IMG/VR virus record: IMGVR_UViG_3300043021_000113
Strand: one strand, 5' to 3'
DNA length: 64,000 bases
From: a virus
Lineage: Duplodnaviria; Caudoviricetes
The position numbers and the translations under genes are program-made. How positions within the stretch are numbered: the first letter of the stretch is position 1; every line of letters begins with the position of its first letter. Shown piece after piece: positions 4,109 to 44,990 of the stretch. The notes beneath the pieces are model-generated. The model searched no databases. It saw only the letters and a list, made by a program, of their open reading frames with translations, and was not told the DNA's origin.

Positions 4109-4205
4109 TGCCTGGTCTTGTGTGAGCTTTCTGATAATCTCCTGGTTGAGTATCAAACCAACGTTGTCTTCCTTCTAATTTTTTAACTTTCTTTGCGTAC
4201 TTCAT
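4092..4205 (-). CDS. 37-aa basic protein (not in ORF track)
   Basis: MKYAKKVKKLEGRQRWFDTQPGDYQKAHTRPGSVKTR; fills the gap between MoxR and RNase H. Confidence 0.5.
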   Translation of the reverse strand: MKYAKKVKKLEGRQRWFDTQPGDYQKAHTRPGSVKTR

Positions 4206-4225
4206 GATTTTTGATTTTTTATAAA

Positions 4226-19469: not shown

Positions 19470-19868
19470 TTAAACAGCTTTAAATACTAAATAACCATTA
19501 GATTTTAAAAGTTTAATCGCTTTTTCAATTTCAACCTTTCTCTGAGCGTTCCAATCAGCCGTTTCATCATCTATAACGATAACTTCTGGCTTCTCTTCTT
19601 TAGGTCTATTTCTAGCGTAAATCTCTTTCGATATATTATACGCTGTTTTATACATGAATTCAACCTTACCCATATAAAGAGGTTCTGTTTGAGTAACAAA
19701 ATAACTTCTGTCCTCACTGTCTTCTTTTACAAAGCCAGATTCTTTAATGGCTCTATAAAAATAAGTATTCGAATAAATTTTCGAAATCTCAGTCTTAAAC
19801 TCACTTTTAAGAAATTTCTTCCCTCGTAGCTTATTAAGCTGAGTTGTCATTTTTTCTATGTTTACCAT
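19470..19868 (-). CDS. hypothetical protein
   Basis: C-terminal AIKLLKSNGYLVFK motif. Confidence 0.75.
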   Translation of the reverse strand: MVNIEKMTTQLNKLRGKKFLKSEFKTEISKIYSNTYFYRAIKESGFVKEDSEDRSYFVTQTEPLYMGKVEFMYKTAYNISKEIYARNRPKEEKPEVIVIDDETADWNAQRKVEIEKAIKLLKSNGYLVFKAV

Positions 19869-19914
19869 AATAAAAATGGCAGTTCACCTATACACTGCCA
19901 GGTTTTAAAAATGT

Positions 19915-21513
19915 TTATGATTCTATATTTATAATTTCATCATTAAGTTTACAATTGATAATTTTTATGTCTTTTGAACTAGAAGCACCAGGTATAAATG
20001 TATAATATACATTTTCTCCAACAACTGTAAAACATTTTATCATTTCACAATTTACAAATTCACTTCCAGGATTTGCTGTATGAACAAAACCTCCTATATC
20101 ATTACTACTACTCATGCTACTTTTAAGTCCCATGCTTTTATCAAATGATATATTATAACATTTTGTATTAGCACCTAAATATCCAGCAAAAAATCCCACA
20201 TATCGCTGAGCTGTTATTTTAGAAGAACTACTCTTTGGACTTATTGTTATATTAGAATAACTACAATTATTACCTCCATATCCAATTACACTACCAAAAT
20301 AATGACCATAAGTAGAATATAACTTAAGATCTCCATTAATATTTATATTATTAATTGTAGTATTATTATCTACATATCCAGCAACTATTCCAACATAATA
20401 ATCAACTTCACCTTTTGTAAGATCCAAACTAACATTAGAAAATGTAATATTACTAATTACTCCATTATTAACATTTCCAAAAAAACCCATATAGTTTTTT
20501 ATTCCCATATAGTTTGTTGCTTTAAGATTGTTAATAGTATATTTTTGACCATCAAAAGTTCCTTCAAATGGATTATCTACATTACCAATTGGTGTCCAAA
20601 TTCCTAATTCAATATCAGCTATTAATTTAATAACTTTTCCTTTATAACTATTCCCATTATTTACTTCATCACGAAAAGCTTTTAATTCTTCTAAATTTGA
20701 AATTTCAAGATCAGCTTTTGCTTCAATATCACTGGTAAGCTTGTTCCATTCTTTAGAAAGAATAATATTAAATGTTGGATTTGTTCCGCTAAAATCATCA
20801 ACCCATATTTCAGTAGTTGTGTTTGGAAGAACTTTTACAGTTTTAACAAATACTTTATTATTAGCAGTAACTTTTACTGTTGCACTTGTTATTGATGAAT
20901 CAATAAAACCAAATGCTTCAGCAACTATACTTGATCCTGGAGTATATGTTTTTTTAATATATAATGGATTTTCTTTATCAATAACAACTTTTCCAGTTGA
21001 AACATCAAATTTTGTTCCTAAACCTTCAATTTCAATTTCTGCTGATTCTGCAACTTTATCAACACCTTGTGATAAAACTTGAATTTTAGCATAAGGTCTT
21101 GTTAAAGGAACATCAACAGGAGCCATTATTTCTGAAACACTAATTGGTGTTGATGCATAAAAAGAATCTTCATTGTCTAAATCTGTAGTATATGTTCCAT
21201 CAAATTTTGATTTATCACCACCACCAGATAACCAAAAATTAAAAGTGTAATCTTGACCAATTACTACTGTTTCATTTATTGTAGCACTATTACCTGAAAC
21301 TGTAGCATCTTTTACTTCTTTTGTTTCTTGATTAAAACAATAAAACAACTTGCTTGTATCATTTGCTTTAGTTCCTAAATGGCTAGCATCAAAAGATACA
21401 TTAAAACTGACTGTTCTTGTTTCTCCAGTTTCTATTACCTCTTCACTATCTTTAGCACATGAAAACATGGCTAAAGAAGCCATGCTCATTGCTATTAAAT
21501 TTTTAAGTTTCAT
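19915..21513 (-). CDS. Bacteroidota-type surface lipoprotein (fimbrillin-like N domain plus beta-helix-like C domain), paralog 3
   Basis: Lipobox MFSC then AKDSEE; L.RPYAKI; W.PIGN...FDGQ.YTI.NL. Confidence 0.75.
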   Translation of the reverse strand: MKLKNLIAMSMASLAMFSCAKDSEEVIETGETRTVSFNVSFDASHLGTKANDTSKLFYCFNQETKEVKDATVSGNSATINETVVIGQDYTFNFWLSGGGDKSKFDGTYTTDLDNEDSFYASTPISVSEIMAPVDVPLTRPYAKIQVLSQGVDKVAESAEIEIEGLGTKFDVSTGKVVIDKENPLYIKKTYTPGSSIVAEAFGFIDSSITSATVKVTANNKVFVKTVKVLPNTTTEIWVDDFSGTNPTFNIILSKEWNKLTSDIEAKADLEISNLEELKAFRDEVNNGNSYKGKVIKLIADIELGIWTPIGNVDNPFEGTFDGQKYTINNLKATNYMGIKNYMGFFGNVNNGVISNITFSNVSLDLTKGEVDYYVGIVAGYVDNNTTINNININGDLKLYSTYGHYFGSVIGYGGNNCSYSNITISPKSSSSKITAQRYVGFFAGYLGANTKCYNISFDKSMGLKSSMSSSNDIGGFVHTANPGSEFVNCEMIKCFTVVGENVYYTFIPGASSSKDIKIINCKLNDEIINIES

Positions 21514-21529
21514 AATTTAAAAGATTAAT

Positions 21530-23122
21530 TTATTCAATAATAACATTTCCACTACCATTATAAAATGTCCCAATATCATTAATTGTTACCGGATTATTAT
21601 TAATTTTACAATTAGTAATAGTTGTAGTTGTATTTCCCCATTTTTCTATTCTACCAGAAAAAGAACCAACTTCTCTTGTATTATTATTTGAATTTATTTT
21701 AATATTGTTTAATTCACAATTAGAAAATACACCATTAGCTATACCACATGTTAAACCACCAATACGTCCATTTATACTTTCTAATTGAATATTATTAATA
21801 CTTACACTATTACAAATTATATCAGTATTTAAATATCCAGCAAAACCGCCAACAGCATCATCGGTAACTTTTATTAAAGAGTTATCATTGGCTTCTAATT
21901 TTATATTCATATATTCAGAATTTCCAGTTTCACTTCCAATAATTCCACCAGCATATCTATTAGCAGTAATATTAATTAAACCTTTAACAGTTATATTTTG
22001 ATATTTATTTTCTCTAGATTCAGCAGAAACAACAGAAACAATTTGATTTCCTATTATAGTTGCATTTTCAAATGTAACATTTTTAATTTCTCCTGAAGAA
22101 ACATAACCAAAAAATCCAACACAACTTTCATTTTCTTTATTAATATTTAAATTTTTAATAGTGTAATTTTGACCATCAAATATTCCAGAAAATGGATTAT
22201 GATTAGAATAATTACCAATTGGCTCCCAATTTTCATCTGTTAAATCGATATTAGATGTTAATTTGATAGTTTTTCCAGAATAACTTTCACCAGAATTTAC
22301 GGCATCTCTAAAAGCTTTTAATTCACTTAAATTTGAAATTTCAAGATCTGTTGATTCATAATAAATAGTGTCCCATTCTTTAGAATAACTAATAGTAATT
22401 ATTGGACTTATAGAATCAAAATTATTAACAGTTAAAACAGTATTTGTATTTTCAATAACATCAACTATTTTTGTAATAGTTTTATTATTAATAGTTACTC
22501 TTACAACTGCATTTTTTACTGTCTCATCAACAAAACCAAAAGCTTCAGCAATGAAATTTTCTTTAGGTGTACAATCTTTTGTTATTGTTCCAGTTGCTTT
22601 AACTTTTCCTGTTGTAATATCAAAAGCAACACCCAATCTTTCAATCTCAATTTTTGCTGATTCTGCAACAGTGAGACCATCTTTTGATAAGACTTGAATT
22701 TTAGCATAAGGTCTTTTTAAAATAATTTTTTTATCAGTTGATTTAGTAACAGTGAATGTTTCTGATGCATAAAATGAATCTTCATGATTTAAATCAGTAA
22801 CAAAAGTTTCATGAAATGCATCTTTATTTCCATTACCTGATAACCAAAAATTAAAAGTATAATCTTGACCTATCGTTACGCTTTCACTTATTAAAATATT
22901 ATCTCCTGAAACATCTTTTGATTTTACACCACTACCAAATGAATAAAACAATTTAGCTGTTCCATCTGTTTTAGTTTTTATTTGGTTTGAATCAAAAGAC
23001 AAATTAAAACTAACTACTGCTTCTTCTCCATTTTCAACTTCATTTACTACTTCCTCATTTTTACTACATGAAGTTATAGTCAAAGCTGCTAATCCAGTGA
23101 TTATTAAATTTTTAAAATTCAT
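21530..23122 (-). CDS. surface lipoprotein, paralog 2
   Basis: Lipobox ITSC then SKNEE; same motifs. Confidence 0.75.
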   Translation of the reverse strand: MNFKNLIITGLAALTITSCSKNEEVVNEVENGEEAVVSFNLSFDSNQIKTKTDGTAKLFYSFGSGVKSKDVSGDNILISESVTIGQDYTFNFWLSGNGNKDAFHETFVTDLNHEDSFYASETFTVTKSTDKKIILKRPYAKIQVLSKDGLTVAESAKIEIERLGVAFDITTGKVKATGTITKDCTPKENFIAEAFGFVDETVKNAVVRVTINNKTITKIVDVIENTNTVLTVNNFDSISPIITISYSKEWDTIYYESTDLEISNLSELKAFRDAVNSGESYSGKTIKLTSNIDLTDENWEPIGNYSNHNPFSGIFDGQNYTIKNLNINKENESCVGFFGYVSSGEIKNVTFENATIIGNQIVSVVSAESRENKYQNITVKGLINITANRYAGGIIGSETGNSEYMNIKLEANDNSLIKVTDDAVGGFAGYLNTDIICNSVSINNIQLESINGRIGGLTCGIANGVFSNCELNNIKINSNNNTREVGSFSGRIEKWGNTTTTITNCKINNNPVTINDIGTFYNGSGNVIIE

Positions 23123-23138
23123 AATAGAAAATAAAATT

Positions 23139-23167
23139 AAACCTGGCAGTGTTTAGCTGCCAGGTTT
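23139..23167. terminator. perfect hairpin between lipoprotein genes
   Basis: AAACCTGGCAG-N7-CTGCCAGGTTT. Confidence 0.55.
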
Positions 23168-23178
23168 GGGTTAATTTA

Positions 23179-24891
23179 TTAGTTGTTATTAATGATAAGT
23201 TGACCAAGACCTATGTTTTTGTCTTCATTTACTGTTTCATAAGCAGCACCAAGATCATTTATTTCTACTGGTTTACCATCAATTGTACATCTAGTAAGAG
23301 TTACTTTGTAACCTGTTGCATTATGCCATGTACCAGAAAATGCTGCTACATCTGAATCTCCATCATAAGTACCATTTGTTTTTACTCTTTTAGCAGTTAC
23401 ATCAACAGTTTTACAGTCTACATAATTAGTGCCATAATGAGCAATACCAACAAATCCACCAATATTACGAGTTGAACCAACAACGTCCAAACCTTGAATT
23501 AAAATATTAGTCATTGTTAAACTATTACTTGAACTTTCACCCATGAATCCAGCGAAACCTCCTACATAAGTTCTATAATCTGTCGTACCATCAAAAGAAT
23601 TTGCATATACTTTAGAACCTGTTTCAGCGATTAGTTCAATATTTTCGCAATTTGCATAAACATTCTTACCAAATACACCTCCAACATAAGCGAAACCTTC
23701 TACGTTAATTGTACCTTTTACAGTTATATTTTCATATGTAGAAGTATAAGGACAACCAGCAACAACACCAACATTCAAACGACCTTTAACAGTTGCGTTA
23801 TTAAAGTTTAGGTTTTTAACTGATCCATTCTGAGTATAACCAAAGAAACCAGCATTACTTCTATCTGCAATTTCTACTTTATTTGTTAAATTAATATTTA
23901 AATTGCTAATAGTGAAACCTTGACCATCAAAGTTGCCTTCAAATTTGTTTGTAGCATTACCAATTGGTTCCCATACTTTATTTTCAAGATCAATATTAGT
24001 CATCAATCTTACAGTTCTACCTTTGTAGCTATCTACACCAGTATTTACTGCATTACGGAAAGCTTCAAGTTCAGCACGATCACGAATGCTCAATTCACCT
24101 TTTACTTCATCAGTTTTTGAACCTGCCCAATCTGCATAACTTACACTAATAGTTGGAGTTCCACCCATTCCATCGAAACTATCAACAGTTAAAGTGGTAA
24201 TCATGTTTTGCTGAACTGCAACTGTTTTCTTTAAAGTTGCACCTTTAAATGTAACTTCAACTTTTACTGAATCTTCATCTTTATTTGCAAAACCAATAAT
24301 AGAACCTAAACTTGTAGATTCTTTAAGGGTAGAATTTGCACTAAGTGGAGTTTCAGATTTTGTCATTTCTCCTGTTGTAACATTGAATTTATCACCTAAA
24401 CCATCAACTGTAATTGTTGAATTTCCCGTAAGCTTACTTGTTGATACAACAACAATTTTAGCATATGGTCTTACAAGTGTAGTTGATATAGTTTGACCCT
24501 GAGCTTTGAATTCTTCTGATCCATAGAATGAATCTTCATTTTTAAGATCAGAAATTATTTCACCATTTGTAAATGGATTTTCAATTCCAGCTCCTGAATG
24601 CCAAAAATTAAACTTATATGTATTGCCATTTGTTAATTCTTCAGAAATAAGAGTACTTGAAGCTGGTTTTTGTTCGTCATATGTAAAACCATTATTTTCA
24701 TTTTGTTCACCTATAACATACCAAAGCTTAGTTCCTCCAGCTTTTGTCATCATTTGGCTGTCATCAAGAGTTACATTAAAGTTAACCATTGATCTTCCAT
24801 CAGTAGTTCCGCAGAACTCTTCATTGTCATTTACACATGCGGTTAGTGCAAGGGCACCTAAGCCCATAATCGCAAAATTCTTTAGTTTCAT
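23179..24891 (-). CDS. surface lipoprotein, paralog 1
   Basis: Lipobox LTAC then VNDNEE; same motifs. Confidence 0.75.
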   Translation of the reverse strand: MKLKNFAIMGLGALALTACVNDNEEFCGTTDGRSMVNFNVTLDDSQMMTKAGGTKLWYVIGEQNENNGFTYDEQKPASSTLISEELTNGNTYKFNFWHSGAGIENPFTNGEIISDLKNEDSFYGSEEFKAQGQTISTTLVRPYAKIVVVSTSKLTGNSTITVDGLGDKFNVTTGEMTKSETPLSANSTLKESTSLGSIIGFANKDEDSVKVEVTFKGATLKKTVAVQQNMITTLTVDSFDGMGGTPTISVSYADWAGSKTDEVKGELSIRDRAELEAFRNAVNTGVDSYKGRTVRLMTNIDLENKVWEPIGNATNKFEGNFDGQGFTISNLNINLTNKVEIADRSNAGFFGYTQNGSVKNLNFNNATVKGRLNVGVVAGCPYTSTYENITVKGTINVEGFAYVGGVFGKNVYANCENIELIAETGSKVYANSFDGTTDYRTYVGGFAGFMGESSSNSLTMTNILIQGLDVVGSTRNIGGFVGIAHYGTNYVDCKTVDVTAKRVKTNGTYDGDSDVAAFSGTWHNATGYKVTLTRCTIDGKPVEINDLGAAYETVNEDKNIGLGQLIINNN

Positions 24892-24963
24892 AAAAAATTT
24901 AAAAATTTAAAAAAAATTAAAAAGTTAATAATTAAGTTAATTTAACCGTTATCCTATACACGG

Positions 24964-25326
24964 TCAAGGTTTAATATTTTTTAAAACATCTTGAATTATA
25001 GATGCTTTCTTTTTTGCTTTTTCAAACTCTAAAATCCAACTGTTAAGTTCGATTTCATCGCTTATTACTTCTCCAAATAAATTATGAACACAAACTCCGT
25101 CATCCTCAACTGTTATTGAAAAATCACCGTTTGGTTCTTCTATTTCACAATAAGAATTATTTTTATATTCAGAAAAGCTAGTTTTAAGTGCTAAAATAAA
25201 ACTATCAATTGATCGTCCTTTTACTACAACCCCATTTAAAAACCCACAAATAAGATATCTTATTTCCCAGTCATCTTTGGTTACGTATAATTCAGCACCA
25301 GCATTTAATTTGCCTATATAATGCAT
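24964..25326 (-). CDS. hypothetical protein
   Basis: ORF. Confidence 0.65.
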   Translation of the reverse strand: MHYIGKLNAGAELYVTKDDWEIRYLICGFLNGVVVKGRSIDSFILALKTSFSEYKNNSYCEIEEPNGDFSITVEDDGVCVHNLFGEVISDEIELNSWILEFEKAKKKASIIQDVLKNIKP

Positions 25327-25332
25327 TTTAAT

Positions 25333-25713
25333 TTATCTTTTCTTTATCTTAAGAATTTTTACATTCTTAGGGTTAAAAACTATTGTTATATTTTGCATTA
25401 ACTCTTGGTTATCATCAATCCCAACAAATCTTATACTATCGTAACCTTCTAGATATGCTCTGTTTATTTCTCCTGTAAAACTCAAGCCTTGCTTGTGCAA
25501 ATCTTCTTTGGTTCCTTTAATGATTTTTATTGTTTTATAAGATAATTCACAAGTTAATTGAAACTCCCTGTCAAGGATAGTGCCTTTTTTGGGTTTTTCG
25601 TTATCAGTAAAGAAAATTGCATTTTTAATGCCTTTCTTAAATTCTGAAAAATAATTATTAAAAGAGCCATTGAATTTCTCCAATGGCTCGTTTGAATAAT
25701 GAAAAACAACCAT
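25333..25713 (-). CDS. ADP-ribosyltransferase-like (ART-PolyVal-type) protein
   Basis: VFH.S, IFFT, GYDSI, IVFNP.NVKI pattern recalled for this family. Confidence 0.5.
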   Translation of the reverse strand: MVVFHYSNEPLEKFNGSFNNYFSEFKKGIKNAIFFTDNEKPKKGTILDREFQLTCELSYKTIKIIKGTKEDLHKQGLSFTGEINRAYLEGYDSIRFVGIDDNQELMQNITIVFNPKNVKILKIKKR

Positions 25714-25724
25714 TTTTTAATAGT

Positions 25725-25937
25725 CTATAAGCTGAAAACCTCTTCTCTAATTTTAACGATTTTATCTGTTGTTACTTCTAAAATCTTTTTAAAGACATTT
25801 GGTTTTATTTGTTGCACAATGTCTAATTTGTCATTATCTCTCATGTTCTCCTTACAAAATCTTATTGCTTCTGATTTATTAAGAAAAGAACCTAAGTGTG
25901 CATCCTCTGAATATATATTGTAAATTGATACTTGCAT
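25725..25937 (-). CDS. hypothetical protein
   Basis: ORF. Confidence 0.6.
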   Translation of the reverse strand: MQVSIYNIYSEDAHLGSFLNKSEAIRFCKENMRDNDKLDIVQQIKPNVFKKILEVTTDKIVKIREEVFSL

Positions 25938-26924
25938 ATTTAAAATTTGGTTTTGATTTTATGAATAATTATTGATATAATAAAAGCCGCTATGCTTATT
26001 CCTAGAACAAACATCGCAGCTAAAAGTATAATTGCCACTATTCTTTATTTTTATATTTAAAAATAATTAATATTATAGAGCTAATTATAAAAGCACAGAT
26101 AAAAGATCCTTCAGCACATAAAGCAATAAGTAGCCATATAATAAAGCCAAGGATAATTACAAAGACAAGAATTGTATTTATAATGTCCAGCATGTTTTAT
26201 AAAAGTATTTCAAAAATCAAAAAGAAAAATGAAACTATAATTAGCCAGCCAAAAATTACAAATCCAACTGATTTAAGAATAGGTTTTATCCAATCATCTT
26301 TACTCATAACTTATTATTTGCTAGTTTTACTACACCATGCCATAAATCCGGAAATCAACAATGCTGGAATTCCAATTATAGGACAAGCAAAAATAATCAT
26401 TATTAAAAGAATAATTCCTAAAATTTTCATTTTTAATGATCTTTAAAGTGTATTATAATATTATATAAAACTAATCCCAAAAATAAAACTCCACTTATGA
26501 TATATAAAATCGGGTTGACTATGTCGATATAAGCTATTATGCCAATTATTATTAATATAGACCAACCAAGAACAGAGAAAAATTCTTTCATTATTTACTC
26601 TTTAATTGATCCATAACATAACAAACAAGCAAAACTAAAACTCCTATACTTATAATTCCCCAGATCCAGGCACCTATAATGTAACCTAAATCACAATCCG
26701 CAAAATAAATTGCTAAGTAACTTGTACCAGCTAATAGTGCAATAATCTTTATTAAATTATCCATTACTATTTACACTTACTTTCAAGTGTGAAGTTTTAT
26801 ATGTTAATAAATTAAGTTATATTATTTTTTAAATAAAATTATTCCATCAGCAGTTAGTTTTAAAAACTAACTACTGACTTCCTCTTACTAATTAACAATA
26901 AGAAAAATTAGGAATAATTAAAGT

Positions 26925-27320
26925 TTAAAGGTTAATAGAACGTAATTGTTTGAGAATATAATTCGCGGTTTCTTTTGTTACTGAAGCATTAATAACAATT
27001 GCGCCATCTTTTATGCCATCAATTGATACTTTATTTTCTCCTTCAGTAACGTTAATTTCTGCTTTCATGCCATTTGATGCTTTAACTATTGCATTAGCAG
27101 AATTGCTCGTAGTTTTGAAATCTACAAGTTCAAAAGTTATTAATGTTTTATCGCCAACGTTAGCGTAAACTTTGGTTAAATTATCATTAGCTGTTAGTTC
27201 TATTGCATTAAAAGAACCTAAAGTTATTGTGTTATCTACTGGTTTATCAGCTGCAAATGCTTTAATACCAACAGTTATAACAACAAACGTAATAATAAGC
27301 CAAAATACAAACTTTCTCAT
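26925..27320 (-). CDS. secreted hypothetical protein
   Basis: Signal peptide ending KAFA. Confidence 0.7.
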   Translation of the reverse strand: MRKFVFWLIITFVVITVGIKAFAADKPVDNTITLGSFNAIELTANDNLTKVYANVGDKTLITFELVDFKTTSNSANAIVKASNGMKAEINVTEGENKVSIDGIKDGAIVINASVTKETANYILKQLRSINL

Positions 27321-27462
27321 AATTTTTTACACTTACTCTCAAGTGTGAAGTTTTAAATAATTAATATTTTATATTATTTTATTAAATAATAAATTATAGC
27401 GTAAAGTGATATTAGCAAATAAACTGTAAATAATGCTAATGTAACACTTTTTAAAAATCTTT

Positions 27463-27819
27463 TCATTGTTTTTTGTTTTGATAGACTATGCGTTTATTAT
27501 CTGGTGAGACAAAAATTACGCTTGAACTATCTTTGGCTATCTTAATATGTGATAAATTCTTATCTTTGATCACGTAATTTTTAAATTTTCCGTGATCATG
27601 CGTTGAGGTGTATTTATATTTCAAACATTCTCTTTTCTCGTTAAAATATAAAATTACTTTTTCTTTTTCATCAACCCAAAATTCGCTTGGTTCTGTATCA
27701 TAATAAATCGCATTGTTATTCTCATAAAAATTTATAAGATCAAAACGATTTACAAACTTAGTCTCTTGGGCATTAGCGCCCAAGAAAACTAAGCATAACA
27801 AATAAAAAATATGTTTCAT
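27463..27819 (-). CDS. secreted hypothetical protein
   Basis: Signal peptide ANA-Q (Bacteroidota Q-rule). Confidence 0.7.
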   Translation of the reverse strand: MKHIFYLLCLVFLGANAQETKFVNRFDLINFYENNNAIYYDTEPSEFWVDEKEKVILYFNEKRECLKYKYTSTHDHGKFKNYVIKDKNLSHIKIAKDSSSVIFVSPDNKRIVYQNKKQ

Positions 27820-28158
27820 TTACTGAAGCCTTATAAAATTAGAGCCGTTTTCTTGATGGATCTCCCAACCTTTATTTATCTTTTCAAAATAACATTTATT
27901 ATCTGAACATTTAAGTTGGACATAATATCTATTTTTATTTTTATTTATTATTTCAAACTCCATCGTTTTTGAAAGCCCTTTCTCTTTATCTCGCATTTCT
28001 AAAAAAATTGATTGATCTTTAATAATTATTGTTCCGTTAACTTTAAATATATTCTCTGTTTCGGATTCATAATATGTAGAAAAATCAAACTTTTTTTGAC
28101 TGCAACTTGAAAGTATAAATGAAAAACTAATTATAATTAAATAAATAAAATTTTTCAT
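27820..28158 (-). CDS. small lipoprotein
   Basis: MKNFIYLIIISFSFILSSC. Confidence 0.7.
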   Translation of the reverse strand: MKNFIYLIIISFSFILSSCSQKKFDFSTYYESETENIFKVNGTIIIKDQSIFLEMRDKEKGLSKTMEFEIINKNKNRYYVQLKCSDNKCYFEKINKGWEIHQENGSNFIRLQ

Positions 28159-28496
28159 TGTAGTTTTATATGATCATAACCATTTTCTTTATAAAGTTCC
28201 CAACCATTATTGGTTTTTTCAATATAACCTTTAAATATTATAGGTGCACTTTTAGAATGAATATAATATTTATCACCAGTTTTATTTATTATTCTAAATT
28301 CTTCACTAGAAAATTCATTGTTTTCATCTATTATTTCCATAAAAATTGAATAATCATCAATAATTAATTTTCCTTTAATATTACTTGATTTGTTATCACT
28401 AAAATCATATACTGAAGAAAATTTAATTTCTTTTTGATGATAGCTTGAAAGTATAAATACAAAACTAGCTATAATTAAATAAATAAAATTTTTCAT
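28155..28496 (-). CDS. paralog of 27820-28158 lacking the lipobox Cys
   Basis: MKNFIYLIIASFVFILSSY; start moved to 28496. Confidence 0.7.
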   Translation of the reverse strand: MKNFIYLIIASFVFILSSYHQKEIKFSSVYDFSDNKSSNIKGKLIIDDYSIFMEIIDENNEFSSEEFRIINKTGDKYYIHSKSAPIIFKGYIEKTNNGWELYKENGYDHIKLQ

Positions 28497-28498
28497 TG

Positions 28499-28846
28499 TT
28501 AAAGCCAAATTAATTTCTTTTTTATGTTCTTTTTGTATTTTTCCCATTCTTCGTTTAATTTTTCAGGACTTAAAAGATAATCGCTCATAATAACTGGTAA
28601 ATCTTTACAACCACCAAAAACTTTTTCGTTATTTTGATAAGCATCATATTTAGTATAAATATATAAACCGTAATCATAAACTTTATTATATATAAAAAAA
28701 CCACCTCCAAAAGCTACAAATTCTTTTTTATTTAAAAAATAACCTTTAGTTCCTGTTCTTAAATCATAAACATTTAATGGTATAGCATTAGCATAATGAT
28801 CAAAACCGTCTCTAAGTCTAAAATCTTCTCCTATTTTTATCATCAT
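28499..28846 (-). CDS. hypothetical protein, paralog of 29366-29671
   Basis: N(V/I)YD..T..KG..LNK..F ... FG..D(L/I)PV..SD. Confidence 0.7.
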   Translation of the reverse strand: MMIKIGEDFRLRDGFDHYANAIPLNVYDLRTGTKGYFLNKKEFVAFGGGFFIYNKVYDYGLYIYTKYDAYQNNEKVFGGCKDLPVIMSDYLLSPEKLNEEWEKYKKNIKKKLIWL

Positions 28847-28899
28847 TAATTACGCTTAACCTATACAGCATTAGGTTTTAAATTATTTTTATTTTATTT

Positions 28900-29331
28900 T
28901 TATAAACATTGAAACCTTATTGTTTTATCTCCGAATTCTTCTGGAATATATAACATCCATTTTTTATCAGAAAAAATCTTTCTAATGTAATATTTAAAAC
29001 CAGAATCTTTATTTTCTACAAAATATTTATATTCTTTGAATTCTTCATTTTCAATTGTTGTTTCAATATCTAATATTTTAAATTCTATGTAAAACTTAAC
29101 ATCAGTATTTTTATTAATAAAATTTAAAATTATTTCTTCTTTTGTTTCAATAACATTTCCGTTTAAATAGTTAAAGTCAGGAATTTTCCCACTATTTATT
29201 ACTTCTTGGCAATAATCAAGAGTTAATTTTGGTGTTGTTATTTCTCTATCTTTAAAATCCTTTGTTTTATTATTACAGCTTGAAAATATAACAATAAAAC
29301 TAGCTATAATTAAATATAGAATATTTCTCAT
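28900..29331 (-). CDS. small lipoprotein
   Basis: MRNILYLIIASFIVIFSSC. Confidence 0.7.
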   Translation of the reverse strand: MRNILYLIIASFIVIFSSCNNKTKDFKDREITTPKLTLDYCQEVINSGKIPDFNYLNGNVIETKEEIILNFINKNTDVKFYIEFKILDIETTIENEEFKEYKYFVENKDSGFKYYIRKIFSDKKWMLYIPEEFGDKTIRFQCL

Positions 29332-29365
29332 TTTTAATTGCATTTAACCTTTATAATGCTAGGTT

Positions 29366-29671
29366 TTAATTATTATTATTTATCCATTCTTTCTCCATTT
29401 CTTCAAGCTCTAAAACTTTATCGCTAACAAGAACTGGTATATCATTATTTCCAAAGAATTTCTTTGAATGTTCCCAATCATCAACTTTACAATATATGTG
29501 TTTATTGTAAAAATAACCGTCAGGATGTATGTTTGCTGTATTTTCACCATAAAACATCCATCTATGATCAATCATTATAAAATTATTTTTATTTAAATTT
29601 ATTCCTTTATCTTTTGTTTTAATGTCATAAATATTTACAGGATCAAATTTACTTATAATTTCATTTATCAC
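29366..29671 (-). CDS. hypothetical protein
   Basis: Paralog of 28499-28846. Confidence 0.7.
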   Translation of the reverse strand: MINEIISKFDPVNIYDIKTKDKGINLNKNNFIMIDHRWMFYGENTANIHPDGYFYNKHIYCKVDDWEHSKKFFGNNDIPVLVSDKVLELEEMEKEWINNNN

Positions 29672-29715
29672 TTTAAAATACGCTTAGCCTTTACAACGTT
29701 AGGTTTATATATTAT

Positions 29716-30357
29716 TTAATCAATATTCCAATAATCTATTTCTTCATTTAATATTGCTTCATCCCAAGATAATTCATATCCTGTAGAAGTATAATCATTT
29801 TCTCTTAAATATTTAAATTTACATTTAAGCGTAAATTCTTTAGATTTACTAACTAATTTTTTATATTCTTTTTCATCAAAAATAATATTATATATTTTAT
29901 TATCAGTTAAACACTGTACACAATAAAGATTATTTTCAATAGATTTATAATAAATTTGACGAGATTTTATTTTTATTTCTTCATTAGTTAAAGCATTAAA
30001 TATTTTTAAATAAGAAATATTAAAAGGAGACCAAGAAGAATATTTAAATATATTTGAAAATTTAAATTTTACTTCTGCTTCAAAATCTTTATAAGTTTCA
30101 TTCCATTTTTTTTCAATTTCTTTTATATTTAATTTATATTTAGAATATAAAATTGGAATTTCATTATATTTATTTTTATTATAATTATTTAAATATTCAA
30201 TTTTACAATAAAAAAAACCATTCCAACCAATATTTCCCCATTTTACTTCTTCATTATAAATTGTCCATTCATCATTTATTTTTTTAAAAGAATTTTTATT
30301 TAAAGAATCAAAATTTAATGAATGATAATAACAATTTACAAATTCATTATTATTCAT
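29716..30357 (-). CDS. hypothetical protein
   Basis: N-terminal half resembles the same family (LNKNSF..I...W..Y, YCK, IPIL.S). Confidence 0.65.
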   Translation of the reverse strand: MNNNEFVNCYYHSLNFDSLNKNSFKKINDEWTIYNEEVKWGNIGWNGFFYCKIEYLNNYNKNKYNEIPILYSKYKLNIKEIEKKWNETYKDFEAEVKFKFSNIFKYSSWSPFNISYLKIFNALTNEEIKIKSRQIYYKSIENNLYCVQCLTDNKIYNIIFDEKEYKKLVSKSKEFTLKCKFKYLRENDYTSTGYELSWDEAILNEEIDYWNID

Positions 30358-30411
30358 AACAACTCTGCGCTTAATCTACACAACGCCTAGACTTTAAATA
30401 AATTAATTAGT

Positions 30412-32320
30412 TCGGTTGAGGGAATTGAACCCTTCAATGGCAAACCTGCGCAACCGATAAATTGCTGACTTTCACAAGCAAGCAATCCCGCAATTACAAA
30501 TCATATTAATTCAAAATTATGAAAACCTTTGTAGCTCTCTAGGAATCGAACCTAGAACTACCCACCAGGAAGCTTGAAACCTAATTTCACAATTAAGTTT
30601 GCACTAAAACCAATAAAAATACTTAACTTCATGAAAACAAACAATACGTGTGACTTTCCGGGAATTGAACCCGGAATTACCCAAACCAGGAAGTCGCAGC
30701 TCTAACTTCACAGCCAAAACTGATAAAATCTAACTATTTAACTATTTACCATTTTAAAAAATTATCAAAATGAAAAAAATCACAGAAAATGTGCGGCTCT
30801 CTGAGAATTGAACTCAGAATTACCCAAAAAACCAGGAAGCCACAAACCCAGTTTCACAACTGAATTTGTAAATAAAAAATCACACAAAAAATATATAAAA
30901 AATATTATGTGAGGCTTGCTGGGAATCGAACCCAGGATCAATCTAACCGTAGACAAGCCGAGAATAAACCTAACTTCACAGTCCAGCTATTCTAAGTGAA
31001 AAAAACAAAAATTATGATATACAAATGTTGAGGCTTTCCAAGAATTGAACTTGGAATTATCCATACCAGGAAGCCAAATTTTAAAGACGCCGAATTTCAC
31101 AACCCAGCGTCTTTGTGTAGTGTGTCTAATTTTTAATGAACTATTGTTTTGTTATTATTAAAGTAAATGTACAAAGATGAAGTGGACTTCTAGGAATTGA
31201 ACCTAAAATTACCTAAACCAAGAGTCCATATTTAAAAGAGCCTAATTTCACAATCAAGCTCTTTTTCTTAGCATGTTTTACTAATTCTCTATATTATGAA
31301 CAAAGTACAATTCTATTCGTGGCCCGCTGGGAATTGAACCCAGCATTACCTAAACCAAGAGGCCTCAAGCCTAGCTTCACAGTCAAGCTTGTTGTAACAA
31401 CTTAAATTTTCAAAAAAACATGATTATATTATGAGTATGGCGGCCTTTTAGGAATCGAACCTAATTTTAATCCAATAAGGCCAATAAATCTCCAAATTTC
31501 ACAACTTAGAGATTCAAAAATTATTATCAACTAATTCAAAACTATTATTTATAAAAAGCGTGACTACAAATGTAGTGGTCTTTTAGGAATCGAACCTAAA
31601 TTACGCTAACCTGCAAGACCAACCCTTAATTTCACAATTAAAGGGTAACAATAAACTAAAAATAAATATATATGGAAAATCAAACTCTGTGGCTTTTAAG
31701 GACTCGAACCTTTATGCACGCCAAAACACATGTAAAGCCAGTTGTGTTTTTCATGGTTATCAAGTACGATATTATGTGAATATATGTGAATAATACTGCG
31801 ATATTATAAAAAGAACTGCCGAACTTCACAGCCCAGCAGTTCGCGCTTTAATCATATTAATTTAATATAAAAATACATTTCAAAAAGAAACTTTATGCGT
31901 GCGGCTTTCGAGGACTTGAACCTCAATGTATGCCTTTATACATAGAAAGCCAAATAATCTAATTTCACAATTAAATTATTTTTTACCCAACACTAAAAAA
32001 TTAACATGATATGAAAAACGTTGAGGCTTCTAAGGATTCGAACCTTAATAGCGCCTAACCGCGAAGCCCAAAATTCCTAATCTCACGATCGAGAATTTAA
32101 ATTTCAAATAACAAATCTTCAGGTTATGAAAAAATCATAAGTGCCTGCCTGGGAGTCGAACCCAGGAGTGGGATTTTGTAGACTTTAGTTGTGTATAATC
32201 AATTACTATTACCTGTTGAAACAAGTGATTTTAACTACATTTAATTTTAATTTTATTGTTAAAAGAAATTTATTGTTTATTTTAAAAAAATAAACAAACC
32301 CACTGTCTTCCTTGCCAGGC
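30412..32320 (-). ncRNA. array of 14 mini tRNA-like elements, 13 GUGA-tetraloop hairpins and 13 unique spacers
   Basis: tRNA-like units at 30412-30457, 30533-30574, 30652-30695, 30795-30841, 30913-30959, 31032-31075, 31183-31228, 31321-31364, 31442-31482, 31577-31620, 31690-31740, 31903-31951, 32025-32068 and 32143-32320. Each has a GUUCRAnUC T-loop and covarying stems. No ORF >=60 aa in the region. Confidence 0.9.
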
Positions 32321-32466
32321 TCTGAACCTTAACGCTTTAAGAGTTCAGTTGTTCAAAAGAACTGTAACGCTTTACATGAACCTTGAACTAATAAAAAAAA
32401 TTCGCCAAATTTTCCGTGATTACTCGAAGCACGGACTAAGTGATCATGAAAAAAAGGATCTGACCA

Positions 32467-35198
32467 TTAGTTGAGCCAGTATGGCTTATTACTAACAGCT
32501 AATATATCATGGTTTGCGAGTTTTAACTTTTCAGGATCTGTGTTAAATCTATAGCCAAGTATTTTACGATTCAACCTAAAATAACTTTCGGGACTTTCCT
32601 TAGTTATAACAGTGATCACATGTTGAAAAGTATTTTTATTGTCTACTTCTTCAAACTTGAATCCCTTATAAGCTCTAACTCTAACCGCTGGCTTTGTGAT
32701 ATATAAGCGTATTTTATAAATAAAACCTAGGTACACGCCGTTTACATCATATTTCCCGCGATTTGGGTCCTTGATATCTGAATACTTCATCTCACCCATT
32801 TTAAGGTTTCTGAACCTAAAAATCGGGTATACTCTAAGAGCTTTCCATTGTTAAGTTCAATTGAGATGATAAGCTTTTTTGTCTCATAATTTCTTATGCT
32901 TATATAATTAACATCGCATAAAATGCAAGATATTTCTTGATTTAATAATTCTTGTTTAAGACAAACTCGACCATCAGAAAGTATCTTAAAATAACAATTG
33001 TTAATTTCAAGTGTTTTGCTTTTTTTGGAAAGTTTACTAACGTTTATTGATTCCAAGTCTGGACATTTAGCCAGACTTGAAATTACACGTTCTTTCACTT
33101 CATCATTGCAAAACAAAATTTCTTCTCCTGATGTTGTTTTTATTATAAGTTTATATTGTTTCATTTATGAAAAATCACTATGAATAACAACTCCTTTGTT
33201 TTTTATTAGATGCAAACCATCTTTTATGACTATATGGTCAGCTGTACAGGATTTCCAGTATTCACCATACATTCCAGAAAGTTTGTATCTTATAAAACCA
33301 TTACTTACTACTTCTTGAAAATCGTCTTCATAAATAATTTCGTTAAAATCCAAATCTTCGTCTGAATGAACATTAACGGTTATTCCTTTAGGTGCTTTTT
33401 CAAGAAATTTTAAAAATTCTTCTTGATTGAATAAATAAAATCTATCTTTTAATCTAACTTCGTATCTCATTTTTTAAAAAGGCATATCGTCTAATTCTGG
33501 TTTCGTTGAGGTATCAAGCATTTTTTGTGCTTTTTTAATTTCAGTGAAAACTGATGATGCACCAGTCATAGTTGAAGAGTTATAATTAAAACTTAATAAT
33601 CCAGCTGGAAAACTAGCTTCTGCATAATATCCGCGGTCATGATAAGTTATCGTAAAAGTTGATAACGTGAACATCGGATAGCCTAAATAGCCAGTTATTA
33701 AGTTTTTATTATTATATGGGCCCCTATCTGTTTTTAGATGTAAACGACCATCTCCTGTTACTATGTAATGAGTACTGGTTATTAATACTTCGTTTTTATC
33801 TTTATAATTAACAGCACGGAGTTTGACATTTTTGTCGAACGCATCAAGTTCAGTGAAAAGATCCAGAGCATCTGCTAAGCTCTGAATCAATTCTATTTTA
33901 TCTTCATATTCTAATCTGTACATATATAACTATAAGTTGAGGTTCCAGAATTCTTGTTATGAGTTATTGTATGCTTTGTTTTATCTTTTAAAGTAAAATT
34001 AATGGTTACTTTGTCGTCTTCTTTTGTAAATATAAGATAAGTTGGAAAAACTCTAAGATCGCTTTTTATGCCGTCTTTATCTATATAATTATTTTTAAAA
34101 ACTACATGACCATTATTAAAAACACGGAATTTATCATCAGAAAATATTTTTGTTTGATCATTCGTCGAATCTACTTCTTGAACTCTAAAATCCCTTATGT
34201 CTTTATTATTAATTACTGCTGAATTAATAAATTTGTTTAATCCTTCGTTATTTACAAATATTGTTGTTTTATCAAATGTTATTCTATACATAGTTAAATA
34301 ATCATGGTTAACCTATACACCATAAGGTTTAGATGAATAATTTAATATAATTTAACAATTAATATGTCTTCAAAGCTATTTATAATCATTGCTTCGCCAT
34401 TTTTCTTTTTGAACATTGCTGCTCCTGATTCTGTAAATTTTACAAAATAAGCTAAAATGTCAAGATTATTTATTTTTATATAATAAAAAACGTTTGTATC
34501 TAGCTTTGTAAATTTGCAGTTTTTATCTATATAAAGAGAATTATTAGATAATGCGTTATGCATAAATCCTGGAGCTATTGGTTCAGCTTGACGAATGAAT
34601 TCTTGAATTTTAAAGTGTCGATACTCGCCAATAGATAAAGCAATTGTTACTGTATCATTAGCTATCTCTTTAATAACTCCAAACCAACCTTTAATTCGAA
34701 CGTAATTTCCGGTTTTTACTTCTAATTTCTCAAGAGCAAATGATCTGTGTTGATTAAATCCAGATTCATCAAATATCATTCCTAAGCATTTACAAGTTAA
34801 ATCTTGGTTTATTTGAACATCTAATGGATCGATTATTACTCTTGAATTATCAAGAGTTCTTCTAAGAATATATACTATCATAAATTAATTGATTTTTAAA
34901 ACTTGAGAGTATTTAGGATTTGAGCATTAAATGTTGGTGAGATTTTATTTATTCTTACATCACCAGATAATCTATCAACTTGGCCGTTTATAAGATGAAT
35001 GGAAATTAAAGTTATGCCGTCATTGAGCATTACTTCTACTTCATCTCCTCTGGAAATTACTTTAGTTTCTATATTAGTAACTCCTAAAGCAGCTTTAGTT
35101 AAATAGTCAATAGTGAAATTTTCACTTTTAACAATGCTTAATTGTTCCATGAAGCTTTCTTTTATACTTTGAAAGCTTGAAAATACTTTCTGTTTCAT
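32467..35198 (-). CDS. run of seven early hypothetical ORFs (32467-32799, 32787-33164, 33165-33470, 33474-33923, 33911-34291, 34342-34881, 34896-35198)
   Basis: Contiguous co-oriented ORFs; several start M(K/R)xY(K/E/R)(L/V/I) and may be remote paralogs. Confidence 0.7.
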
Positions 35199-35378
35199 AA
35201 TTTTTGTGTTTTATTCTTGGTTTTTCTTTTCAGCACATAAAATGGCAATTATAGCAACATAAACAATGGTTATAAATATAGCTAAAAATACTGGTGCATT
35301 TGTAACCATTAAAAGAATAAATACTGCTATAAAAGCAATTAAACTTGCGATTAATTTTAAAATAAAATTTACCATGAT

Positions 35379-35942
35379 TTAATAATTGTTACTGTAACAT
35401 TCACCCATTATCTCTTTTTTGCCAGATAAGACATCTGCTGTGTATATATTGGTATATTTACCAACATAATGGAAATCATGTAATGTGTGTACTGTGCCTT
35501 GAAGATTTAATGGATTAATTACTGTTTCATAAGCTCTCCTATCCCAAGGATTACTTGAAGAATTGTTTTTTAAAATAATTGTTATGTTCATAATTTTTAA
35601 TGCATTTTACCTTTACAATGCTAGGTTTGAATTAATAATCGCTGTTTCGTCTTAATTTTCAAAGACTCGTCAGAAGCTTTCTAAGCTTGACAGCGAGATT
35701 ATTTAATCATAATCTCGTGTATACATTTCACCATGGATTATGGCGTTTTGTTTGATATCTTCTGTTTGAACATCAACCCAAGCACCTTTCCATGGGAAAT
35801 CCCAAATAGTAGTTGTTTTTGAATTATTTTCTGGAGTAATTTTTATTTTGTATTTTCTGGTTCTTTTAAATGGTTCATAATGTCCAAAAATTCCTAAGAC
35901 TTCATAACCAGAAAGTAAAATTATAACGTCAAAATTTTTCAT
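35379..35942 (-). CDS. two related small ORFs (35379-35591, 35703-35942)
   Basis: Shared I.P.N...T..T..DF ... GE.Y...Y pattern. Confidence 0.65.
35639..35696 (-). ncRNA. type III hammerhead ribozyme
   Basis: UCGCUGUC^AAGCU-UAGAA-AGCUU CUGACGA GUCUU-loop-AAGAC GAAA CAGCGA: complete core, three stems, GUC site. Confidence 0.9.
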
Positions 35943-36248: not shown

Positions 36249-38336
36249 TCATCTACACGTGTATTCTTCTTCATAGAGTGCTTCTAACTGTTCGTCGATA
36301 TTCTTACACTTGCTTTCGGAGCGTAGCCATTCTTCGTTAAGAATGGCATTTTCTCCTAATTGCTTATATAAATTGAACTGAAATTCTCTTTCTTTTTCCA
36401 GTTCTTGATATAGTTCGTCAATTTTTACATTTGTTCTCATTGGTTATTACTTTTTAAAACTGAGATCACGCGTTCCATTTCTTTTATATACTGCTTATAG
36501 CTCGCGATTTCTTTTTGATAATTTTTAACATCTTTTTTGTACTTTTCTTCTAAGTTTGAATAGTTTTCTTTTAAAGATGTATAATAATTATTCCAGTTTT
36601 CGTTTAGTTCTTTTTTCTCTTTATCGAAATTTTCTTTTAGTTCTTGATATTCTTTAGCTAATGTTAAATATCTAAAACTCCAATATTCGGTATCTTCTTC
36701 TAATTCTTTTCTTTCTTTATCGAAACTTTCTTTTAATGCGTCTATTTCCATTTCATATTCAATTTCTCTATTATGATAAAAATTCCGCAATTCTTCTTCT
36801 TTTTCTTTAAGAGTTTCTTTATATTTAATTTCTAAAGCTATATAATCAACACCCCAACTTTCGTTTAATTCTTCTTCTTTTTCTTTAAGAGCTCTTTTTA
36901 TTCTTTCTTCTATTTCTTGCTCTTGTTGTTTTCTTATTTCTCTTTTTAAACGACTAATGTTGTTTTGTATTTCTATAGACTCGTCAAACCATTTTTCATA
37001 TTCTGAACTACTAAAAGATATTGTTTCAAGCTTTGCGTATGTTTTAATTAAAAAATATTCTTGATCTTTTAGTTGTTGTTCTAAATTATAATTTATGCTC
37101 ATTTTTAATTGTTTTTTTATTGGTTAATAATTAGTTTTCAAATTATGCATAACTAATGCATAACTTGAAACTAATTAAAAATTTTTTGTTATAATACGCG
37201 CACGCGCGTACATTATATTATTGGTTACTTTTAATTTCTTAAAATTAATCCCAATAATCAAAAGAATTATTCAAAGAAAAACACATATGTTTTTTACTTA
37301 CTTTTTTATTTAATTCTTCGATTCCTTCTTCTTTATATTTTGTTTTCATTTTTGTTACACGACAACCTAGCTCATTTCTACGTTCAAAATTGTTTTTGAA
37401 AATATCTAATACTTCTTTTTGATTGTTTACAATATCGCTATATTCTCTTAAAATCTGCTTTGTTTGTTTGCATCTTTCTCTTAATTCTTCTTCGTATTTA
37501 TGGCCAAGTTCGAAAAGTTCTATTTTATGTTTAAGTTCTCTTTCTTCGTGTGAATACTCTTTTACTACGTCTGCATAACGTTTGCCGTTATATTCTTTGT
37601 CTTCTTGGTTTTGGTAAAAATCGTATATTTTACGAATATATCTTAAACGTTCTTTGAACCCTTCTAATTCTTTTTTGCTTTCTTCGAATTCCCAATCTGT
37701 CATCATATCTTTTTAATTTTTAAGTTGTTTTATTGATTTTTAAATAGTTACGCAAATAATGCATAACTTGAAATTAATTTAATTTTTTTTATTATAATTC
37801 GCGCGCGTACATTATATTATTGCACGAATTAAAGTAAAAAGAGTGTAAGCCGCACATAATATCAGCACGGCTTTAGTGAACTTGTCAAGCTTCATGATTA
37901 ATACTGTTTAACTCGTCATATAAAACTTTTAACTTTCTATCTATTTTGTCAAGTTCTATCTCAACTGGCCAACAGTAAAACTCAAGTTCTTCAGAGTCTT
38001 TGTAAGACTCTTGGAGATCTTGAATTTCTTCGATAAGCTCTTTGCGGACTTTATATAAAACATCCATTTCATCTTTTATCTTTTTTGCGTTCATGATTAA
38101 ATGTTATTATTATTGAACCATTCTGGACGTTCTCTTAATATATCATACAGCTCATCGTAATTCTCCGAATACCAAGCTTTAGATATATTCGCATTCTCTT
38201 CTTCTCTCTTCTTATAAGAAGAAGAATCTTTGGCTTTATCTCCTAAAGCTGTTTTTAAATCAGCCATTACAGCTAAATTATTATTTATTACCATTTGAGC
38301 TGCAAAACCCAAAAGCTTTTCGTACTTTGTCTTCAT
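36249..38336 (-). CDS. five charged coiled-coil early ORFs (36249-36440, 36437-37102, 37245-37706, 37885-38094, 38097-38336)
   Basis: E/K-rich ORFs; 36437-37102 has internal repeats. Confidence 0.7.
37154..37822 (-). promoter_or_regulatory. two copies (37154-37223, 37757-37822) of a ~70-bp intergenic repeat, candidate phage early promoter
   Basis: Identical blocks TAATGCATAACTTGAAA and CGCGCGTACATTATATTATTG, each ~50 nt upstream of a start codon. Confidence 0.6.
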
Positions 38337-39153: not shown

Positions 39154-39993
39154 ATGAAATATTCAACATTATTATTAATGTACATTAGTTACAGAACAAA
39201 AAACAATTTAGCAGTCATTAAAAAAGAAGAAGTAAAAAATTTCCTAGGCATGGGAGATGACTGTTTCAGATCAGTTATGAAATATCTTGAAGAAACTGGA
39301 GATGTTATACAAATAAGCCAAAATGGTTTTTATAAAACATTAAAAGTTAATAAAACAATTCCTGTGTATGATTTTATATTTGATAATAAATTATCTAAAA
39401 ATGATAAAGAACTAGCAGCTGTTGTTATATTAAATCATGGAACAGAATTTATTTCTAATAAAAAAATTTCAAAATTATTGAATACATCACCTGCTAGTTT
39501 TGCTCAAAATAAATATAGATTTGAACAAAATTCAGAAATAGATTTTTTCGAATTTCTTCAAAAATCTAAAATAGTTGAACCTAAATTTATAGAAGGGTTA
39601 GTAATAAATCAAGGAGGGGCGCAATTAGCACAAAGAAAAAATAAAAAGAAAATATCTACAGAAGAACGTTTAAAAAGAAAATTAGCCAATATTCCTCATT
39701 CTTTATTTATGGCGTCTAAGTATAATTGTAGATACAGAAAAGGAGAAAAAGCTGAACATACAATAACTGAACAAGACATTAAAGATCAGTTAATAAAACA
39801 AGATTATAAATGTTATTATACAGGTCAAAAATTTTCAGAAGAAGTTGTGCCATCAATTGATCGTATAGATTCAAGCAAAGGTTATATTTCAGGAAATATT
39901 GTTATTGTAGATAAAGTTATTAATATTATGAAGCAAGATCTTTCAGAAAAACAATTTTTAAAATACATAAAACTTATAGCCGCTAATTTTTAG
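39154..39993 (+). CDS. HTH plus HNH-like endonuclease
   Basis: Q..KCYYTG, SIDRIDSSKGY..GNI...IN.MK; TACTTTTG promoter at 39128. Confidence 0.75.
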   Translation: MKYSTLLLMYISYRTKNNLAVIKKEEVKNFLGMGDDCFRSVMKYLEETGDVIQISQNGFYKTLKVNKTIPVYDFIFDNKLSKNDKELAAVVILNHGTEFISNKKISKLLNTSPASFAQNKYRFEQNSEIDFFEFLQKSKIVEPKFIEGLVINQGGAQLAQRKNKKKISTEERLKRKLANIPHSLFMASKYNCRYRKGEKAEHTITEQDIKDQLIKQDYKCYYTGQKFSEEVVPSIDRIDSSKGYISGNIVIVDKVINIMKQDLSEKQFLKYIKLIAANF

Positions 39994-44915: not shown

Positions 44916-44990
44916 AATATGTATTTTTAAATTTTATACAAATATAAAAAATAAAAATTACATAAGCAAGCGTTTTTATAAATAATGCTT

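Follow-up and report, generated by a model that had tools for sequence, protein, structure and literature searches.

Transfer RNA-like folds that do not decode can act as processing signals: in mascRNA and menRNA (3' ends of MALAT1 and NEAT1) and in the TMERs of murid herpesvirus 68, such a fold lets RNase P or RNase Z free a neighbouring non-coding RNA, and minimal substrates made of acceptor and T arm are cut by RNase P and RNase Z. Stable RNAs other than tRNAs are also found in phage tRNA clusters (species C and D of T4, RNA1 and RNA2 of T5), and the 3' external transcribed spacer of Escherichia coli leuZ is a sponge of small RNAs (sRNAs). Bacteroidota and their crAss-like phages initiate translation without Shine-Dalgarno pairing, and to our knowledge very few RNA regulators are known in them. 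In Bacteroides thetaiotaomicron, where homologues of RNase P and RNase Z are present, the sRNA GibS pairs through an unstructured 5' seed of 30-50 nucleotides (nt) across the start codons of mRNAs without a Shine-Dalgarno sequence (PMC7366714). Here we describe, in a stretch of 64,000 nt of virus DNA (IMG/VR record IMGVR_UViG_3300043021_000113, hereafter the window), an array of 14 tandem units on the minus strand (about 30410-32346), each a hairpin joined to a tRNA-like element, with 13 spacers between them. The RNA of most spacers carries, near its 5' end, the antisense of a sequence that resembles a translation start region. The array may give rise to antisense RNAs covering start codons, a reading to which we give somewhat less than an even chance and for which we infer the transcription, processing, pairing, repression and targets.

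Architecture of the array and its RNA strand

Read on the minus strand, every unit has the same order of parts: a hairpin with a GUGA tetraloop (10-14 bp, conserved apex UUGRYUGUGAARUUAG), 0-8 nt, a tRNA-like element and a C. In the tRNA-like element the acceptor stem spans seven positions and its junction often shows C.A; there follow a D-like hairpin of 2-6 bp with GG in its loop, a linker of 0-6 nt and a T arm with a 5-bp stem and the loop UUCRAUU. All 14 units have the same C after the acceptor, in the discriminator position, and the anticodon arm is absent, the gap between acceptor and T arm being only 13-21 nt. The element appears to retain exactly those parts that RNase P and RNase Z read, namely the acceptor/T-stem stack and the T-loop/D-loop elbow, and it is a predicted substrate of both. 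In structure it agrees with this substrate class in its acceptor of about seven pairs on a 5-bp T stem, its T loop of the form UUCRANY and the GG partner in the D loop.

In an alignment of 12 units (A1) compensatory changes were found at 16 of the 20 consensus pairs, together with 31 cells holding G.U pairs, and the units now agree at about 62% column identity and differ by many double changes. A covariance model made from this alignment (R1) matched the array with 55-84 bits, 12 units having E-values of 1e-8 or better, and had no match in the window outside the array. The T-loop sequence UUCRAUU, the GUGA tetraloop and the G.U pairs are correct only on the minus strand, and all 31 G.U cells would become C.A mismatches if the plus strand were the RNA. 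The minus strand is therefore the functional RNA strand, and it follows that the spacer RNAs are antisense to the start-like sequences described below. The predicted unpaired probability is 0.51 for the spacers against 0.21 for the hairpins, the spacers being the least paired parts of the transcript.

All units lie on the minus strand. Unit 1 (30410-30488; R1 54.8 bits) has its GUGA hairpin at 30488-30459 and its tRNA-like element, ending in the invariant C, at 30457-30410. The same build of hairpin plus tRNA-like element is found in unit 2 (30531-30600; 77.7 bits), unit 3 (30650-30722; 84 bits), unit 4 (30793-30868; 80.4 bits), unit 5 (30911-30988; 64.4 bits), unit 6 (31030-31114; 82.4 bits), unit 7 (31182-31265; 82.7 bits), unit 8 (31319-31391; 83.6 bits), unit 9 (31440-31516; 67.5 bits), unit 10 (31575-31646; 71.9 bits), unit 12 (31901-31981; 66.6 bits) and unit 13 (32023-32098; 73.2 bits). 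Units 11 and 14 carry inserts with hairpins of their own. Unit 11 (31689-31842), recognised from split R1 matches and from its fold, has an insert of 72 nt (31741-31812) between hairpin and tRNA-like element. The divergent unit 14 (32141-32346) has an AGCG-loop hairpin, a weak R1 match and a fold z-score of -3.3, and its insert of about 130 nt (about 32165-32300) sits within the tRNA-like frame, where it parts the acceptor from the T arm and is closed by a CAGUGGG/CCCACU stem. The array leader (32347-32466, minus strand) comes after the stop of the open reading frame (ORF) 32467-32799 and holds a terminator-like hairpin, UUUUUUUCAUGAUCAC as another anti-start-like segment, and a further hairpin.

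No Rfam family reached its gathering score on the array. Canonical tRNA (RF00005), of which the gathering score is 29, gave at best 16.6 bits, and this in a forced alignment, and ARAGORN reported no real tRNA gene in the window and left the array stretch empty. The scores for mascRNA-menRNA (RF01684) were 14.7-17.4 bits against 42.5, those for GibS (RF04182) and BTnc231 (RF04180) 21.8 against 115 and 25.2 against 80.4, respectively. An array of clustered regularly interspaced short palindromic repeats (CRISPR) was likewise rejected, given repeats with about 62% column identity, spacers of 41-70 nt and adjoining ORFs that belong to no Pfam or PHROG family; there are also no cas genes in the 64 kb.

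Likeness of the spacers to start regions

Each spacer was taken as the nucleotides after the discriminator C up to the foot of the next hairpin. In RNA sense the 13 spacers (41-70 nt) consist of 48% U and 32% A. CAT occurs 21 times in them, compared with 11.4 in dinucleotide-preserving shuffles (P=6e-4), and all 13 spacers have it within their first 25 nt, where 4.9 spacers are expected and none of 5000 shuffles reached this number. The longer TTTTCAT occurs five times in the spacers against 0.6 expected. Two kinds of CAT can be distinguished, an inner one of the form UUUUCAU(AA) and a boundary one, C-ACAU, directly after the 3' end of the tRNA-like element; in each spacer RNA the anti-start segment is placed at the 5' end. 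The CAU was also considered as part of a Met anticodon loop (YUCAUAA) that has been displaced, a reading dropped because no conserved flanking stem was seen.

Start-likeness was scored with a position weight matrix (PWM) built from 76 of the phage's own start regions, covering positions -20 to +14. On the plus strand the mean over the 13 spacers was 6.6, with best scores of 4.2-13.1 in 11 of them. Real starts gave 7.0 +/- 4.0 when scored leave-one-out, and random plus-strand windows of the same length gave -1.5 with a 95th percentile of 5.0, a value exceeded by 10 of the 13 spacers (binomial 2e-11). Combining the per-spacer values from composition-matched shuffles by Fisher's method gave P = 3e-7. 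On their RNA-sense strand the spacers had a PWM mean of only 0.6 (Wilcoxon P=0.002 for the comparison of strands). In their scores the spacers behave as a set of individual real starts would, and not as a super-consensus, and the spread of their scores, which is that of real starts, is as expected if each spacer mirrors one individual start. By PWM, CAT statistics, strand asymmetry and accessibility, they carry a segment, predicted to be exposed, that is complementary to a start-region consensus, start codon included, as would be needed in antisense start-blocking RNAs.

A sequence-only reading of the locus had already described the plus-strand spacers as start regions, and the PWM means and the excess of CAT over shuffles bear it out. 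The same holds for the comparison that it had set beforehand, of ATG position and context with composition-matched shuffles, in which both proved enriched. Every start codon that it had listed was found where it had been placed, as given here together with the plus-strand PWM score of each spacer and, where available, the shuffle P. Spacer S12 (31982-32022; ATG 32011) has the top score of all (13.1, P<0.004). It is followed by S10 (31647-31688; ATG 31672; 8.3), S3 (30723-30792; ATG 30770; 8.1), S8 (31392-31439; ATGs 31431 and 31420; 8.1), S13 (32099-32140; ATG 32126; 7.9, P=0.01), S1 (30489-30530; ATG 30519; 7.7, P=0.007), in which the RNA reads UUUUCAUAAUUUUG at nt 6-19, S7 (31266-31318; ATG 31296; 7.7, P<0.004), S5 (30989-31029; ATG 31014; 7.1), S6 (31115-31181; ATG 31167; 6.4) and S2 (30601-30649; ATG 30631; 5.5). 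Start-likeness is weak in S4 (30869-30910; 4.2, P=0.36), which has the boundary CAU only (ATG 30907), and poor in S11 (31843-31900; ATG 31895; 0.2). S9 (31517-31574; 1.0) is without a good anti-start segment and contains TTTG-N22-TAGTTTTG, a possible internal promoter of the Bacteroidota type; the earlier description of this stretch (31515-31575) as having only GTG/ATG candidates was correct, its ATG being a late one. All spacers are on the minus strand.

Start regions and promoters of the phage

A Shine-Dalgarno-like core was found at only 3 of the 102 predicted starts of the window, and the leaders of these starts have A-rich stretches from -3 to -5 and from -11 to -15, so the phage's start regions are of the A-rich kind without Shine-Dalgarno sequence that had been recognised by eye. 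This is the pattern of Bacteroidota (PMC7366714). The plus-strand reading frames that begin in the spacers encode only 1-35 amino acids, enter the tRNA-like element now in one and now in another of the three frames and have no common peptide; the start-like sequences are therefore not coding.

A promoter for each unit was also considered and rejected. The Bacteroidota -7 box TAnnTTTG, which is found at likely real promoters of the phage, occurs in only two spacers (S1 and S9; about 1.1 expected), and a sigma-70 scan of the array gave no enrichment (28 against 22 +/- 5.5). S9 alone has TTTG 22 nt upstream of the box and so resembles a near-canonical promoter. Since the box is present in only two spacers, the CAU is probably within the RNA and not upstream of transcription starts of single units. 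Elsewhere in the window, boxes of the form TTTG(A/T)ATAAAAT lie at 39048, 39090 and 39132 (plus strand, spaced 42 nt) and at 44931 (minus strand), where the minus-strand and plus-strand gene blocks diverge, and are likely host-type middle or late promoters; at 39132 a TAnnTTTG-type -7 motif lies upstream and runs into the box. The plus-strand ORF 39154-39993 has a C-terminal half that is HNH/endonuclease VII-like, and the PHROG matches there also include families with the labels Srd anti-sigma factor and sigma-70 decoy.

Many early genes beside the array (19868-35591, minus strand) have, in place of the plain A-rich leader, a leader hairpin 5-12 nt before the AUG, with loops such as GUAUAGGUUAA or GUAAAGGUAAA. 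Genes with such hairpins might escape generic anti-start RNAs.

Candidate targets

When all spacers were paired with the 102 starts of the window by RNAduplex, one outlier was obtained, S8 with the start of gene 37706-37245 (153 amino acids, no family; start region 37680-37735, minus strand). The predicted duplex has 26 bp from -23 to +5, AUG included, with one internal loop and -27.8 kcal/mol; it is the best duplex of S8 among about 8,500 windows of both strands, and none of 350 shuffles reached this energy. S5 has 13 nt in common with the start of the mini-paralogue gene 2147. A blastn-short search of the spacers against 102 fetched loci returned chance matches only. Overall, no mRNA target of the spacers is established, and gene 37706-37245, the only candidate in the window, is a marginal one.

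Genome setting and relatives

The source phage is crAss-like and AT-rich, with a G+C content of about 28%, and a ribonucleotide reductase, a GroEL-like chaperonin and a large terminase are encoded in the window. The array lies among early genes inside a gene block of 39 kb (about 50 to about 39,000) that is entirely on the minus strand, and occupies an ORF-free stretch between ORF 32467-32799 and ORF 29716-30357. A protein from the array flank is also present on a contig of 152,878 bp, and sequencing run SRR11794475 contains the phage. The flanking ORF of 213 amino acids is a singleton, and its one other readable contig breaks at the array; considered as a possible protein partner, this downstream ORF gave no informative look-alike in the ESM Atlas.

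No related array was obtained from IMG/VR or JGI metagenome contigs with three structure-based patterns and then with R1, nor in the terminase neighbourhoods of relatives that are 53-57% identical. Single mini-tRNA-like elements without anticodon arm do occur in unrelated IMG/VR contigs that differ much in G+C content (L002 6948-7011, plus strand; L009 4965-4901 and L007 8676-8605, minus strand). They have the same connector, CCUGGU..GGGUAAU, and T arm, with C after the acceptor in L002 and L009, and ARAGORN called none of them. The putative processing module therefore appears to belong to a wider, uncatalogued family, while the array with its spacers is so far unique.

The model crAss-like phage phi14:2 of Cellulophaga has highly transcribed early non-coding regions of which the function is to be determined (bioRxiv 10.1101/2020.03.07.982082). 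In its genome (NC_021806) we observed that one of two such regions, at 4031-4500, is a transfer-messenger RNA gene according to ARAGORN, with the tag GSSVQKLAMVA, and that positions 3390-3480 hold three degenerate T-arm-like repeats. R1 had no match in the early region of phi14:2.

Discussion

If the array is a source of antisense RNAs, it would be transcribed into one precursor together with the surrounding early genes of the minus strand, and the tRNA-like elements would be the processing signals, cut by RNase P at the 5' boundary and, behind the discriminator C, by RNase Z or an enzyme of equivalent function. These cuts would release about 13 small RNAs of approximately 70-100 nt, in each of which the spacer would form a variable 5' part that is for the most part unpaired, and a constant GUGA-capped hairpin the 3' part, which may shield this end or serve as a protein-binding site. 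The CAU in its U-rich context would then be the mirror of the A-rich, Shine-Dalgarno-less start region of Bacteroidota, and the anti-start segment would fall within 25 nt of the new 5' end. Each RNA could thereby pair across the start codon of particular mRNAs, of the host, of a rival phage or of the phage itself, and block initiation. Pairing across start codons had been proposed from the letters of the DNA alone. The antisense strand, the start-likeness, its 5' position and the precedent of GibS speak for that part of the proposal, and no pairing partner was found; host receptor or defence genes or competing phages, which it had named as targets, are pure conjecture.

It is tempting to go one step further and regard the locus as a natural multiplex guide-RNA array of a phage, in which about 13 anti-start seeds on a constant GUGA handle are excised by host tRNA-processing enzymes and silence host or rival genes, either without a Cas-like protein or with some partner that reads the hairpin. 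We consider this extension doubtful, although it is a serious possibility.

Several observations weigh against an antisense role of the spacers. S9 and S11 fail as mirrors of start regions, and S4 resembles one only weakly. The sequences are rich in A and U and low in complexity, and the starts behind the PWM belong to the same AT-rich genome as the array. One exact 13-mer (RNA AAUUAAUAUGAUU) lies in S1 (30499-30511) and again in S11 (31850-31862), each time immediately 5' of the hairpin, and S3 can be aligned with S12, so that part of the signal may be inherited. The longest exact matches of spacers in the window are at most 14 nt, in agreement with the earlier inspection by eye, which had noticed no exact target there. 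Twelve of the 13 spacers have their most stable predicted duplex of the 64-kb window away from gene starts, and because other spacers reach similar energies at sites that are not starts, the match of S8 is only marginal after correction for 13 spacers. About 4 kb of the genome beyond the left edge, with 27 further starts, gave no target. Of the 20-mers centred on the start codons of S12, S7 and S1, that of S12 had two matches, both in Lachnospiraceae and without extension, in 185,579 GTDB species genomes, and those of S7 and S1 had none in IMG/VR. Finally, neither the searches described above nor one of INPHARED phages gave a related array with which the spacers could be compared.

The main rival explanation, which we hold to be rather unlikely, is that the structured modules are themselves the product, as decoys or sponges of host tRNA-directed enzymes or nucleases or as stable RNAs, and that the spacers are AU-rich linkers in which the U-rich CAU segments serve 3'-trailer processing, an S1 or other single-strand RNA-binding protein, or occasional internal promoters. 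The modules are indeed the conserved and covarying part of the locus, down to the invariant C in all 14 units and the hairpin apex. In the apex, UUGUGAA could pass for an anticodon loop of the His type, which is a hint of tRNA-His mimicry, and C73 is the discriminator of tRNA-His; G-1, the other identity mark of that tRNA, is however present in only 3 of 14 units. The single mini-tRNA-like elements of the same build in unrelated viral contigs, which have no such spacers, the near-canonical promoter in S9 and the empty target search all fit this explanation. On the other hand, the trailers of these single elements are without the CAU motif, and it is left unexplained why a start-like CAU should be kept in 10-11 diverged spacers, on their 5' side and on one strand. 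In a very improbable alternative, the plus strand is transcribed as well and its start-like sites load ribosomes, as micro-ORFs or as a ribosome sponge antisense to the array. The plus-strand PWM scores do equal those of real starts, but the short frames, which lie in all three registers relative to the conserved element and have no common peptide, argue against it, as does the transcription of the whole 39-kb block from the other strand, with no evident plus-strand promoter.

That the start-like look was inherited or is compositional, through tandem duplication of one unit and AU-rich drift and with no function, we consider quite improbable. Among themselves the spacers reach a slightly higher mean local score than shuffles do (11.4 against 9.9 +/- 0.3), and the segments common to S1 and S11 and to S3 and S12 point in the same direction. 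Yet the most alike pair scores 17 against 16.7 +/- 1.6 for the best shuffled pair, so that no pair truly stands out and inheritance by recent duplication can be rejected; composition-matched shuffles, moreover, fail to reproduce the signal. As the units have diverged to the extent seen in A1, an unselected core of 3 nt with its context should therefore have been lost in most copies. Even if the RNAs are antisense, their targets need not lie outside the phage, and temporal control of its own early and middle mRNAs is conceivable, if improbable: the spacers match a PWM derived from starts of this very phage, and S8 and S5 have their 26-bp duplex and 13-nt match at starts of its genes 37706-37245 and 2147, but 12 of the 13 spacers have no outstanding partner among the 102 starts of the window and the 27 beyond it, in about 45% of the 152,878-bp genome.

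Returning to antisense RNAs that cover start codons, the view of the array as tRNA-linked small-RNA production joined to start-codon antisense control is an interpretation that is partly supported. If true, a dozen different anti-start RNAs made by tRNA-type processing would be a new phage route to reprogram translation, a natural counterpart to engineered tRNA-guide RNA (gRNA) arrays and a ready-made scaffold for multiplex knock-down in Bacteroidota. Even with inert spacers, the 14 covarying hairpin-plus-mini-tRNA modules make up an uncatalogued RNA family with single relatives in other viral contigs.

Comparison with known systems

The alternation of structured repeats with variable, guide-like spacers and the proposed processing at the repeats recall CRISPR and synthetic polycistronic tRNA-gRNA arrays. 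In contrast to CRISPR, the repeats here are 70-85 nt long, diverged and covarying, the spacers are 41-70 nt long, and there are neither protospacer matches nor a sign of spacer acquisition. GibS-like sRNAs have, as is proposed for the RNAs of the array, a long AU-rich, unstructured 5' seed for pairing over the start codon that is followed by a 3' hairpin, and the sub-threshold Rfam alignments of GibS and BTnc231 to spacer plus hairpin show the same layout. Each of them, however, is encoded singly on the chromosome and has a promoter and a terminator of its own; they are not arrayed, not joined by tRNA-like elements and not encoded by a phage. The stable RNAs of T4 and T5 and the leuZ spacer are co-transcribed with tRNA or tRNA-like genes and freed by tRNA processing, as is proposed for the spacer RNAs, but they sit among decoding tRNAs, whereas the window, which has no real tRNA, holds a dedicated hairpin-plus-mini-tRNA module. 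The TMERs resemble the array in being a viral cluster of several units of tRNA-like element plus hairpin. Together with mascRNA and menRNA they are eukaryotic, with 3' ends of long non-coding RNAs or microRNAs as products, whereas here 14 tandem units of a phage come with variable anti-start spacers.

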